Below are positions 1 through 9,651 of a stretch of DNA of 9,651 nt, piece by piece. Source of the stretch: a virus (lineage: Duplodnaviria; Heunggongvirae; Uroviricota; Caudoviricetes); IMG/VR virus record IMGVR_UViG_2585427793_000010, one strand, 5' to 3'. Position numbers and translations under genes: made by a program. Each line of letters opens with the position of its first letter. The stretch's first letter is position 1. Under the pieces are notes generated by a model that made no database searches, was not told the origin of the DNA, and saw only the letters and a program-made list of their open reading frames with translations.

Positions 1-1158
1 ATGCTCACCGTTAAGCAGATTGAAGCAGCAAAGCCGAAAGAAAAACCATACCGCCTTCTCGATGGTAATGGCCTGTACCTTTATGTCCCTGTGTCAGGGA
101 AAAAGGTATGGCAGCTTCGCTACAAGATTGACGGTAAGGAGAAAATCCTGACCGTCGGAAAATATCCGCTTATGACTTTGCAGGAGGCAAGGGATAAAGC
201 ATGGACTGCGAGGAAAGACATCTCAGTTGGCATCGATCCTGTAAAGGCGAAAAAGGCTTCGTCTAACAACAATTCCTTTAGTGCGATTTACAAGGAATGG
301 TACGAGCACAAGAAGCAAGTATGGTCAGTAGGGTATGCAACTGAACTTGCCAAAATGTTTGACGACGACATTTTACCTATCATTGGCGGCCTTGAAATTC
401 AGGATATTGAGCCGATGCAACTGCTGGAAGTAATCCGCAGGTTTGAAGATCGCGGTGCAATGGAACGAGCCAACAAAGCACGCAGAAGATGCGGCGAGGT
501 TTTCCGTTACGCTATTGTCACCGGAAGGGCTAAATATAACCCGGCACCTGACCTTGCTGACGCCATGAAGGGATACCGCAAGAAGAACTTCCCGTTTCTT
601 CCTGCAGACCAGATCCCGGCATTCAACAAAGCACTGGCAACATTTTCAGGAAGTATCGTATCGCTCATTGCGACCAAAGTTTTACGCTACACAGCCCTAA
701 GAACGAAAGAGCTTCGTTCCATGCTATGGAAGAACGTCGATTTTGAAAATAGGATTATCACCATCGACGCCAGTGTGATGAAAGGACGCAAAATTCATGT
801 GGTTCCTATGTCAGACCAGGTAGTTGAACTTCTCACTACGCTAAGCTCCATCACCAAACCAGTCTCAGAGTTTGTTTTTGCCGGGCGCAACGATAAGAAG
901 AAGCCAATCTGCGAGAACGCGGTACTGCTTGTGATCAAACAAATCGGCTATGAGGGTCTGGAAAGCGGTCACGGATTCAGGCATGAATTCAGCACGATTA
1001 TGAACGAGCACGAATGGCCTGCTGACGCTATTGAAGTGCAACTGGCACATGCAAACGGCGGATCTGTGCGTGGGATTTACAACCATGCTCAGTATCTCGA
1101 TAAACGCAGAGAAATGATGCAATGGTGGGCGGACTGGCTTGATGAGAAGGGGGAGTGA
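1..1158 (+). CDS. intS: Prophage integrase, P4-type tyrosine recombinase
   Basis: 385-aa ORF. N-terminal arm-binding-like region (MLTVKQIEAAKPKEKPYRLLDGNGLYLYV). C-terminal catalytic signature candidates: R in TALRTKELRS, HxxR in GHGFRHEF, and Y in GIYNHAQYLDKRRE. Confidence 0.95.
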   Translation: MLTVKQIEAAKPKEKPYRLLDGNGLYLYVPVSGKKVWQLRYKIDGKEKILTVGKYPLMTLQEARDKAWTARKDISVGIDPVKAKKASSNNNSFSAIYKEWYEHKKQVWSVGYATELAKMFDDDILPIIGGLEIQDIEPMQLLEVIRRFEDRGAMERANKARRRCGEVFRYAIVTGRAKYNPAPDLADAMKGYRKKNFPFLPADQIPAFNKALATFSGSIVSLIATKVLRYTALRTKELRSMLWKNVDFENRIITIDASVMKGRKIHVVPMSDQVVELLTTLSSITKPVSEFVFAGRNDKKKPICENAVLLVIKQIGYEGLESGHGFRHEFSTIMNEHEWPADAIEVQLAHANGGSVRGIYNHAQYLDKRREMMQWWADWLDEKGE

Positions 1159-6744: not shown

Positions 6745-7107
6745 ATGGCTAGCGAACGCAGTACTGATGTGCAGGCATTTATCGGGGAGCTGGACGGCGG
6801 CGTATTTGAAACCAAAATCGGCGCAGTTCTCAGTGAAGTCGCTTCCGGTGTGATGAACACGAAAACCAAAGGTAAGGTCTCACTCAACCTGGAAATCGAA
6901 CCATTTGATGAGAACCGTCTGAAAATCAAACACAAACTCTCATATGTTCGCCCGACTAACCGTGGGAAAATTTCCGAAGAAGACACCACCGAAACGCCGA
7001 TGTATGTCAATCGCGGTGGTCGCCTGACTATTCTGCAGGAAGACCAGGGACAATTACTGACTCTTGCCGGTGAGCCTGACGGAAAACTCCGCGCAGCAGG
7101 TCATTAA
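6745..7107 (+). CDS. yfdP: Conserved prophage protein of unknown function, first gene of the rightward operon
   Basis: 120-aa product from ATG 6745, preceded by GAGGAG (6732-6737) with a 7-nt spacer. The 106 in-frame codons upstream (from 6427) are Arg/Cys-rich low-complexity read-through of GC-rich DNA and are judged non-coding. Confidence 0.8.
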   Translation: MASERSTDVQAFIGELDGGVFETKIGAVLSEVASGVMNTKTKGKVSLNLEIEPFDENRLKIKHKLSYVRPTNRGKISEEDTTETPMYVNRGGRLTILQEDQGQLLTLAGEPDGKLRAAGH

Positions 7108-8661: not shown

Positions 8662-9014
8662 ATGTTTTCGAAATGGAAGGGTTTCTTCGCGGGAAATGTG
8701 TACCGCGAGATCTGAAAGTGAACGAAACAAATGCTGAGTACCTGGTACGTAAATTCGACGCGCTTGAAGCTAAATGTGCGGCACTGGAAAACAAAATAAT
8801 ACCAGTGTCAGCTGAACTGCCACCAGCAAATGAAAGTGTTCTGTTATTTGATGCTAACGGAGAAGGCTGGCTGATTGGCTGGCGTTCTCTCTGGTACACC
8901 TGGGGACAAAAAGAAACCGGAGAATGGCAGTGGACATTTCAGGTTGGGGACCTTGAAAACGTCAATATCACTCACTGGGCAGTAATGCCAAAAGCACCGG
9001 AGGCTGGAGCATAA
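8652..9014 (+). CDS. yfdS: Conserved prophage protein of unknown function, Trp-rich C-terminus
   Basis: 120-aa ORF. Start overlaps the yfdR stop (ATG 8652, alternative ATG 8658 forming ATGA), with GGAG at 8640-8643, indicating translational coupling. Confidence 0.85.
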   Translation: MRMNVFEMEGFLRGKCVPRDLKVNETNAEYLVRKFDALEAKCAALENKIIPVSAELPPANESVLLFDANGEGWLIGWRSLWYTWGQKETGEWQWTFQVGDLENVNITHWAVMPKAPEAGA

Positions 9015-9319
9015 TGACCACATTTACCAATAAAGAACTGATTAAAGAAATCAAAGAACGAATCAGCAGCCTAGAGGTTCGAGACGATATTGAGCGCCGT
9101 GCTTATGAAATCGCACTCGTATCTCTGGAAGTAGAGCCAGATGAACGCGAAGCCTATGAATTATTCATGGAAAAGCGTTTCGGTGACTTAGTAGATCGTC
9201 GGAGAGCAAAAAACGGCGATAACGAATACATGGCATGGGATATGACTCTCGGTTGGATCATCTGGCAGCAACGAGCTGGTATCCATTTTTCAACAATGTC
9301 ACAACAAGAGGTGAAATAA
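9014..9319 (+). CDS. yfdT: Conserved prophage protein of unknown function
   Basis: 101-aa ORF. TAATG stop-start overlap with yfdS and GGAG RBS with 5-nt spacer. Confidence 0.85.
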   Translation: MTTFTNKELIKEIKERISSLEVRDDIERRAYEIALVSLEVEPDEREAYELFMEKRFGDLVDRRRAKNGDNEYMAWDMTLGWIIWQQRAGIHFSTMSQQEVK

Positions 9320-9375
9320 TAGAGCCATACAGCCTCACACTCGATGAGGCCTGTCAGTTTCTTAAAATATCCTGA
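9235..9375 (+). pseudogene. ypdJ: Excisionase/AlpA-like HTH fragment, truncated
   Basis: 46-codon ORF overlapping the yfdT 3' end in another frame. Only the segment after the yfdT stop (9322-9372, EPYSLTLDEACQFLKIS) looks protein-like and resembles the start of an Xis/AlpA helix-turn-helix; it stops before the recognition helix. Confidence 0.45.
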
Positions 9376-9415
9376 TCTACCATCGCCGTCATAGAGCGTA
9401 TTTTTATTACCTGAT

Positions 9416-9431
9416 TTGCAGGTTCGATTCC
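9416..9431 (+). other. tRNA T-arm-like 16-mer (TTGCAGGTTCGATTCC), isolated fragment
   Basis: Contains the canonical T-loop motif GGTTCGATTCC but no complementary 3' T-stem, acceptor or anticodon arm nearby. Lies between the excisionase fragment and torI. From memory it matches the T-arm of tRNA-Arg (argW); unverified. Confidence 0.4.
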
Positions 9432-9450
9432 CTATTCGGAGATAGCACTC

Positions 9451-9651
9451 ATGCAACACGAACTACAGCCTGATTCACTGGTTGATTTGAAATTCATCAT
9501 GGCTGATACTGGCTTTGGTAAAACCTTCATCTATGACCGGATTAAGTCAGGCGACCTGCCAAAAGCCAAAGTTATCCACGGGCGAGCAAGATGGTTATAT
9601 CGTGACCATTGTGAATTCAAAAATAAGCTCTTAAGCCGCGCCAATGGGTAA
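9451..9651 (+). CDS. torI: Excisionase (recombination directionality factor) and TorR response-regulator inhibitor
   Basis: 66-aa ORF recognised as TorI (MQHELQPDSLVDLKFIMADTGFGKTFIYDRIKSGDLPKAKVIHGRARW…). GGAGA RBS 8 nt upstream. Winged-helix Xis-like pattern. Confidence 0.93.
   Translation: MQHELQPDSLVDLKFIMADTGFGKTFIYDRIKSGDLPKAKVIHGRARWLYRDHCEFKNKLLSRANG

Follow-up and report, generated by a model that had tools for sequence, protein, structure and literature searches.

The window analysed here is a 9,651-nucleotide (nt) stretch of DNA, IMG/VR virus record IMGVR_UViG_2585427793_000010, which corresponds to the defective prophage KplE1/CPS-53 of E. coli K-12; its last 1052 bases are 100 % identical to K-12 genomes. 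Immediately upstream of torI, the gene for the excisionase or recombination directionality factor (RDF) of this prophage, we found a mosaic joint marked by the remains of another excisionase gene, ypdJ, and beside it a short copy of part of argW, the tRNA gene into which the prophage is integrated. This copy of the T-loop and B arm recurs in the RDF leaders of related elements from several genera, which makes it a modestly novel regulatory candidate and, judged from its conservation, probably a control site rather than a scar. We give a probability of roughly 55 % to the joint reading in which a mosaic joint carrying an xis stub lies beside a conserved, putatively protein-bound element copied from argW.

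The window extends from the start codon of the integrase gene intS to the stop codon of torI, and the attL and attR ends of KplE1 lie outside it. Window positions correspond to positions in our annotated locus L001 minus 2086. In that locus argW is located 161 bp upstream of intS and its 3′ end is the 16-nt attL core CTGCAGGGGACACCAT (L001 1911-1926), while the attR core is found at L001 12127-12142, 75 bp past the torI stop codon. The attachment (att) core and the prophage limits found here agree with those published (PMC2951348).

The copy of argW is a 16-mer, TTGCAGGTTCGATTCC, at 9416..9431 on the plus strand, identical to nt 46-61 of the tRNA gene (L001 1896-1911). It begins with the two final bases of the variable loop, takes in the 5′ strand of the T-stem and the whole T-loop, and ends two bases into the 3′ strand of the T-stem. 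Whichever strand is considered, window and argW have no longer stretch in common. When the window was shuffled 300 times by a first-order Markov model, matches to argW reached at most 13 nt, and the analytic expectation is about 3e-4. The initial annotation, made from the letters of the window, had pointed out a 16-mer resembling a tRNA T-arm without the rest of a tRNA. Its presence and its similarity to argW beyond chance are borne out, with its position corrected by one base to the left. No tRNA gene is predicted in the window by ARAGORN and Rfam gives no match; neither a cloverleaf nor a complete T-arm can be drawn, with only two of the five T-stem pairs possible in KplE1. The 16-mer does not qualify as an att core either. 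The copied argW segment stops where the 16-nt core starts, sharing 1 nt with it, and the leader sequence that follows GATTC, Cctattcggagatagc, has 5 of 16 positions in common with the core. Between 9376 and 9450 there are neither RDF repeats nor integrase sites of the arm type (GGGTAAA); these are located downstream of torI and upstream of intS.

To follow the element beyond KplE1 we gathered RDF loci from species-representative genomes, IMG/VR and GenBank phages. These share an invariant sequence, GTTCGATT(C/T)CC, usually with a further C, located 5-6 nt upstream of the ribosome-binding site of the RDF gene (CGGAGAT). In KplE1 the family-wide invariant core, GTTCGATTCCC, occupies 9422..9432 (plus strand), and its first 10 nt, GTTCGATTCC, are the argW bases that abut the crossover core. 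The GGAG of the torI ribosome-binding site follows at 9438..9441 (plus strand), within the CGGAGAT block kept in all leaders, and torI itself is annotated at 9451..9651 (plus strand) as the intact excisionase of the argW cassette, 100 % identical to HK620 HkaC and Sf6 gp18. The element is found in E. coli phages, in HK620 and Sf6, in prophages of Serratia fonticola, Citrobacter, Pantoea, Edwardsiella and Pantoea stewartii, in the Erwinia phages Midgardsormr38 and phiEt88, in the Salmonella phages g341c and Emek and in many uncultured contigs; every major lineage of RDF-attP-int cassettes with argW as target is represented. To the left of the core the sequence varies (TTGCAG-, TTCCAG-, TGACAG-, TCA-, CCT-, CAA-), and farther upstream the leaders are unalignable.

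The length of the argW match differs between lineages. The E. coli clade and its nearest sister clade have TTNCAGGTTCGATTCC in common, and the full 16/16 match in the E. coli clade arises because a G happens to stand at the N of this sequence; the 16-mer is exact in 75 of the 80 IMG/VR contigs that encode an identical TorI. In Serratia and Pantoea the match is 2 nt longer, reaching ...GATTCCTG, which weakens the idea that an integrase-mediated event generated a match ending at the core. In phages of the Erwinia type the element stands twice in tandem, CAGGTTCGATTCCCGT and CAGGTTCGATTCCCAC (period 16 nt), some 40 nt before the start of the RDF gene (L006 2485-2516; also contigs L328, L329, L332 and L325), and in one contig the period of the two copies is 13 nt. 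The element is missing, through a clean deletion (TTGCCTGG joined directly to AGATAA) or because it was never present, from Chronis, Eho49, L016 and L245-270. The whole genome of HK620 has a single copy, which argues against membership in a regulon of a phage DNA-binding protein, and an IMG/VR scan for the element followed by a Shine-Dalgarno sequence and ATG returned only RDFs of the TorI family and true tRNA genes. A one-mismatch copy, GTTCGATTTCC, equal to the Citrobacter-type variant, was observed on the minus strand of the window at 6891-6901 inside a yfdO-like pseudogene, where about 0.16 would be expected by chance. Since ten bases are unchanged even where the neighbouring RDF proteins share no more than 36-48 % identity, the leader element appears to be under selection, contrary to what would be expected of a neutral scar.

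The cassettes sharing this element differ in their other recombination sites. Between the core and the integrase gene, the TorI and g341c clades contain three to six GTTCG-like repeats, the phiEt88, L255, L246 and L265-269 clades contain four RTTACC/GTAACC repeats and no GTTCG, and L304 contains six GACCA/GAACNA repeats. The integrase arm sites also change between cassettes, being either GGGTAAA or GGGCATA. The leader element does not change with any of the three classes of repeat or the two classes of arm site, with RDF identity down to 36 %, and the argW core TGCAGGGGAC is common to every cassette. Because the element is constant across the RDF and arm-site classes and the target is shared, we conclude that it tracks the argW target and not the excisionase.

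The other half of our reading concerns the mosaic joint. The degenerate excisionase fragment that the initial annotation had noticed upstream of torI is real and represents the 5′ end of an SfV/SfII-type xis. The ypdJ reading frame on the open reading frame (ORF) list encodes 46 amino acids (9235..9375, plus strand); codons 1-28, which are not derived from Xis, lie over yfdT in another frame. Only the last 18 codons, IEPYSLTLDEACQFLKIS followed by a stop, are Xis-derived (9319..9375, plus strand). They consist, in the alignment to SfV, of ATA in place of the ATG start and 17 more codons, followed at codon 19 by TGA in place of AGA, and homology to xis is over by about 9378. The window from 9200 to 9375 is 95.5-96 % identical to orf28 and the 5′ end of xis in the Shigella phages SfV, SfII and SfIV. 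The Xis of SfV begins MEPYSLTLDEACDFLKISRPTAINWIRTGRLQ... and, the start aside, the stub agrees with it at 17 of 18 residues. SfV Xis scores 36 bits against the Pfam family HTH_17 (cut-off 27), and the 46-residue ypdJ ORF has no Pfam family above threshold. The ypdJ sequence is homologous to an intact excisionase and has neither a complete frame with a start codon nor a whole helix-turn-helix/wing domain: it is a pseudogene stub. The same stub without the ATA and TGA mutations is present in phage IME10 and in many prophages.

A search of phage genomes splits the interval in two, with SfV-type homology from 9200 to about 9378 and homology to HK620/Sf6 (98 %) from 9401 to 9651; over this second part HK620, Sf6, Kapi1, HK633, N7 and others are 96-99 % identical to the window. 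A few phages span both parts: IME10 and HZ41 match from 9306 or 9329 through 9651 at 92-93 % (IME10: 9306-9651, 92 %). In a five-way alignment HK620 and Sf6 have the 16-mer and everything downstream of it without the xis stub; the leader is directly preceded by an intrinsic terminator made of GCCGCCtgatGGCGG and a T-run (for HK620 the prediction is at L002 2483-2502). In IME10 the stub and the shared leader are separated by another terminator hairpin, CGCCGCATcaATGCGG with its T-run. At the corresponding place in KplE1 (9384..9405, plus strand), alignment, terminator scans and RNA folds identify the decayed remnant of an intrinsic terminator: the scan of 9384-9405 returns none, the stem having decayed relative to the hairpin and T-run of HK620 and IME10. 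KplE1 is the IME10-type arrangement with a decayed terminator stem.

The distribution of this joint tells where it was made. Among the 80 IMG/VR contigs with a TorI identical to that of K-12, the region upstream is of the HK620 type in 53, of the stub type in 26 and of another type in one. Since IME10 and HZ41, both deposited as complete genomes, and 26 of the 80 contigs have the joint, it was inherited from phages and not made in situ. The joint between stub and torI is old, widespread and phage-borne, and is not the product of decay or nested integration in K-12.

On a larger scale the joint is one end of a module exchange. In SfV the order is orf32(yfdP)-orf31(yfdQ)-orf30(yfdR)-orf29-orf28(yfdT)-xis-int-[attP]-gtrA-gtrB, and the circular order of KplE1 is yfdP-yfdQ-yfdR-yfdS-yfdT-[xis stub]-torI-attP(argW)-intS-yfdG(gtrA)-yfdH(gtrB). 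The attP of SfV holds the 3′ part of thrW, a tRNA-Thr(CGU) gene, from the anticodon loop on (minus strand, L004 4024-4070). The left joint falls at about 9378-9400 and the right one at about 1159-1172. The right joint follows intS, the annotated integrase gene of the argW cassette (1..1158, plus strand): homology to the int-gtrA spacer of SfV (L004 4011-4133) restarts about 15 bp after the intS stop codon, near window position 1172. A torI-attP-intS cassette of about 1.7 kb in KplE1 thus occupies the place of xis-int-attP in an SfV-like phage, in agreement with the modular replacement that had been suggested at the outset. The thrW attP fragment of SfV falls in the stretch that KplE1 lacks. 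On the left, the cassette is preceded by yfdT (9014..9319, plus strand), annotated as the final gene of the SfV-like early-left block, which is collinear with SfV orf28 and from 9200 on shares the 95.5-96 % DNA identity to SfV, SfII and SfIV.

The swap, the 18-codon stub, its origin in phages and the later decay in KplE1 can be read directly from these comparisons. An SfV/SfII-like backbone traded xis-int-attP(thrW) for torI-attP-intS(argW) through a crossover within the conserved 5′ end of xis. The exchange, which took place in free phages, left the 18-codon stub followed by the cassette's own upstream terminator, and the contribution of KplE1 was decay only, namely the changes from ATG to ATA and from AGA to TGA and the broken terminator stem. 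A stub and a module swap of this kind are routine phage mosaicism, already annotated in outline.

Within the stub lies a palindrome, GCCTCA-N7-TGAGGC (GCCTCAcactcgaTGAGGC, 9332..9350, no strand assigned), recognised by direct reading, which in many lineages is kept as the left anchor of the stub, whatever the lineage-specific sequence that precedes it. It turns up at differently built joints, namely the IME10 type, the g341c type, L240-246 and L259-260. This recurrence would fit a short shared sequence at which homologous recombination exchanges modules, in line with the 'boundary sequence' annotations of Sf6. As a further observation on the stub, in IME10 (L005 400-545) and in the stub-type IMG/VR contigs it retains AGA, and its frame, which lacks a start codon in IME10, crosses the terminator and the leader element (...CLICRFDSLFGDSTHATRTTA and a stop) and enters torI out of frame. 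The g341c type fuses the stub to the leader element in the same frame.

What could a copy of argW do in front of an excisionase gene? In lambda-type integrases the left core-type half-site (B) of attB is expected to the left of the identity block, where attP and attB diverge. The ten bases GTTCGATTCC are argW nt 52-61 and lie directly to the left of the 16-nt identity block, where such a half-site would be found. We hypothesize that RDF expression is regulated at the leader element by a bound protein and that the site is dispensable, with the core-binding domain of the integrase or TorI as putative ligand. The core-binding/catalytic domain of the integrase would be the likeliest, because by elimination it is the one factor common to all cassettes that must recognise argW bases. 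Bound to this mimic of an attB half-site, the integrase may lower excisionase synthesis for as long as it is present, and it could possibly form a bridge to the arm sites, which begin immediately behind the stop codon of torI (GGGTAAAATA). The ultimate origin of the element would probably be an ancient capture of argW DNA. A more general and more demanding version, in which all argW cassettes carry a copy of the attB half-site in the excisionase leader and the integrase throttles the excisionase through this decoy and so sets directionality, seems doubtful to us. To our knowledge such control by a decoy of the target has not been described for lambda, P2/186 or P4.

Several points weigh against the reading that we favour. 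The integrase is proposed as ligand by elimination only. Conservation at the genuine core-proximal site of attP (TTCGATGTA in most lineages, AGTAGATGTC in KplE1) falls far short of that in the leader element, which would be odd if one domain reads both. The element also includes the published TorI-site core GTTCG, and in the TorI clade it may be TorI that binds. Furthermore, the lineages compared are kin by descent, with about 10-12 of them independent, and the case for conservation is strong in qualitative terms. Finally, the element is gone from the apparently intact phages Chronis, Eho49 and L245-270, from which it follows that any function it has is non-essential.

The question of TorI as the ligand deserves separate consideration. 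The RDFs Apl of phage 186, Cox of P2 and Vis of P4 regulate at their own promoters, and by analogy the element may be an operator at which TorI binds GTTCG in its own leader and autoregulates. TorI sites have cores GTTCG, GATCG or GTCCG, and the IntS arm-type sites share TAAA (PMC2951348); the GTTCG at 9422-9426 is such a core. Site I4, GGTTCGCTTC, agrees with the element, GGTTCGATTC, at 9 of 10 positions, and a second GTTCG, GTCCG or ATTCG is present 12 nt downstream in L021, L020 and KplE1, with tandem elements in some lineages. However, the element is constant in cassettes whose repeats are RTTACC (phiEt88, L255, L246) or GACCA (L304) and whose RDFs are 36-44 % identical to TorI. Its conservation spans all of GTTCGATTCC, beyond the 5-nt core, and its flanks are unlike the attL consensus yAGTTCGC. 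These features make an excisionase operator an unlikely explanation.

It is also conceivable that the element acts as RNA, its UUCG pairing with CGGA of the ribosome-binding site and an upstream box pairing with the start-codon region (YCATGCRA), which would keep RDF translation low. The box, TTACCTGA at 9407..9414 (plus strand; TTGCCTGR in relatives), is part of the cII site in the annotation of HK620. The leaders of HK620 and IME10 do fold in this way (z = -2.8 and -1.9, terminator included); across 19 leaders of the clade that has the box 81 % of cells are paired, slid controls reaching 46 % at most, and one pair covaries from A-U to G-C. Conserved bases include the C that precedes GGAG and the one that follows ATG. 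Yet the fold was taken from one of the sequences on which it was then tested, the inner helix has only 4 bp, one of them G-U, and RNAalifold found no consensus structure for 18 diverse leaders. The box is missing from Edwardsiella, Erwinia and g341c-type lineages that retain the element, the invariant GATTCC is left unexplained by pairing and the KplE1 leader is no stabler than its shuffles (z = -0.16). We therefore regard an RNA function as quite improbable.

For the initial annotation, the stub and the 16-mer together looked like a scar left behind by an older att/RDF junction or by nesting of elements at argW; such a scar would now be inert. That the 16-mer comes from argW is beyond doubt, and there is a further argument in favour of this view: a degenerate copy of the T-loop adjoins the attP core on its left, TTCGATGTA followed by TGCAGG compared to TTCGATTCC followed by TGCAGG in argW (L006 2795-2806, L002 2813-2824 and equivalents), and the RDF gene and the P arm are thus flanked by two T-loop-derived direct repeats, as an old insertion into a longer tRNA block would give. 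That same copy contradicts the idea that torI splits a longer block of tRNA identity, in most lineages and in KplE1 (AGTAGATGTC followed by TGCAGG) alike: since attP has its own T-loop copy beside the core, the leader element is a second copy and not the other half. A single scar finds no support, since the mosaic block of the stub is not that of the 16-mer and HK620 and Sf6 have the 16-mer without the stub. Nor does nested integration fit, as the joint is inherited from phages, integration does not duplicate the copied argW segment, which is on the left side of the crossover, no core or arm sites adjoin the 16-mer and the element is conserved across genera. Ten bases invariant next to RDFs at 36 % identity and flanks that no longer align would not be expected of a neutral scar, which would not last. 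The arrangement that the initial annotation expected in relatives, an intact ypdJ-type xis followed directly by an att core, was found in its first part: SfV, SfII and SfIV have the intact gene, but these phages integrate in thrW and have int after xis. A functionless scar is accordingly very unlikely, and a very old insertion or capture of argW DNA is compatible with the origin of the element. Finally, the GenBank annotation of HK620, in which a cII-activated promoter pI for integration uses the 16-mer as spacer and second TTGC repeat (HK620 and Sf6 records both mark a promoter and the cII site TTGCCTGATTTGC here), is highly improbable, given repeats spaced N5 compared to N6 at the pRE of HK620 itself (TTGCgagtacTTGT), a first repeat of TTAC in KplE1 and many prophages, a second repeat of TTCC, TTAC or TGAC in other lineages, no conserved -10 hexamer, a negative promoter scan and a spacer that would not be the most conserved part.

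Other candidates were set aside more readily. A small upstream ORF as the main constraint is disfavoured by the lack of a conserved start codon, by invariant third positions of the Val and Arg codons and by frames that differ by lineage. In the frame GTT-CGA-TTC (9422-9445 and homologues) most leaders stop at TAG, TAA or TGA within GGAGATAG, GGAGATAA or GGAGATGA, and synonymous differences between leaders were observed (TTC/TTT, CCT/CCA/CCG, CAG/CAA); a leader peptide seems unlikely. No match to a sigma-54 or sigma-70 promoter was found at the leader by scan and by eye, and none to an integration host factor site by eye. Phages with related P4-type integrases (YeP6, epsilon15, VW-6S and phi297) do not have the RDF-attP-int order and provided no comparison for other tRNAs.

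Two observations concern the far side of torI. At attR (L001 12101-12136) an inverted repeat, TCCCCTGC(A)-N15-17-TGCAGGGGA, is present in the P arm, as in that of every argW cassette (L002, L006, L007, L008, L391 and others), and the att core forms the right arm of the repeat. Its left arm may be an additional core-type site of the integrase or half of a hairpin. In L248 (IMG/VR 2602041673_000004) a second P4-type integrase gene stands directly after the attR core of an argW prophage; this looks like a true tandem array at argW, of the kind the initial annotation had imagined for KplE1.

The locus described here is the published argW module of KplE1, HK620, Sf6 and CUS-3 (PMC2951348; PMC3509656), in which torI and intS flank attP with the core given above, the TorI sites have the GTTCG core, the IntS arm sites contain TAAA and the integrase promoter overlaps the binding sites. 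The published accounts describe attL, attR, torI and intS and differ from ours in leaving the torI promoter, PtorI, 'non-characterized'. The T-loop copy in the torI leader is unmentioned in PMC2951348, PMC3509656 and PMC8787464, and a prior description in other literature on KplE1, HK620 or Sf6 is possible; for hkaC and ypdJ we found nothing relevant. As first stated, the finding is mostly ordinary, and ypdJ is already a known pseudogene name. With the SfV/SfII/SfIV module (xis-int-attP in thrW) KplE1 shares the 5′ end of xis as ypdJ, yfdP-yfdT as orf32-orf28, and gtrA/gtrB; it differs in that SfV has an intact xis followed by int and the thrW fragment, whereas KplE1 has 18 codons only and another integrase, RDF and tRNA target. 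The stub and terminator at a module boundary, with the palindrome recurring at joints, resemble the boundary or linker sequences of lambdoid phages (the 'bsq' features of Sf6, of which bsq2 is annotated over torI and its leader), but those are descriptive blocks of homology that imply no role for a core identical to the T-loop.

Among regulatory precedents, 186 Apl, P2 Cox, P4 Vis and IntS/TorI at the intS promoter PintS resemble our candidate site in that a site-like sequence lies in the control region of a recombination gene, with direct repeats that are sometimes tandem. By contrast, the leader element is a copy of the bacterial attB side, not of an arm site of the phage, and shows no covariation with RDF specificity. 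The 3′ tRNA fragments left at attR by tandem integration of islands are likewise partial tRNAs in a prophage beside recombination genes; what such scars retain is the core and the tRNA sequence on the 3′ side, starting at the crossover, whereas the 16-mer of KplE1 is only the part 5′ of the crossover and is conserved.

These results place a short, sharply conserved and easily mutated sequence exactly at the control region of torI. According to the group that described KplE1, PtorI is uncharacterised, excision is governed mainly by way of the RDF gene, and its control should target that gene (PMC2951348). The element may offer a handle on how the widespread argW phages, P22-like and others (HK620, Sf6, CUS-3, Kapi1 and g341c), silence their excisionase during lysogeny and integration. 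If the integrase is indeed the ligand, this would be a new coupling between the two recombination proteins.

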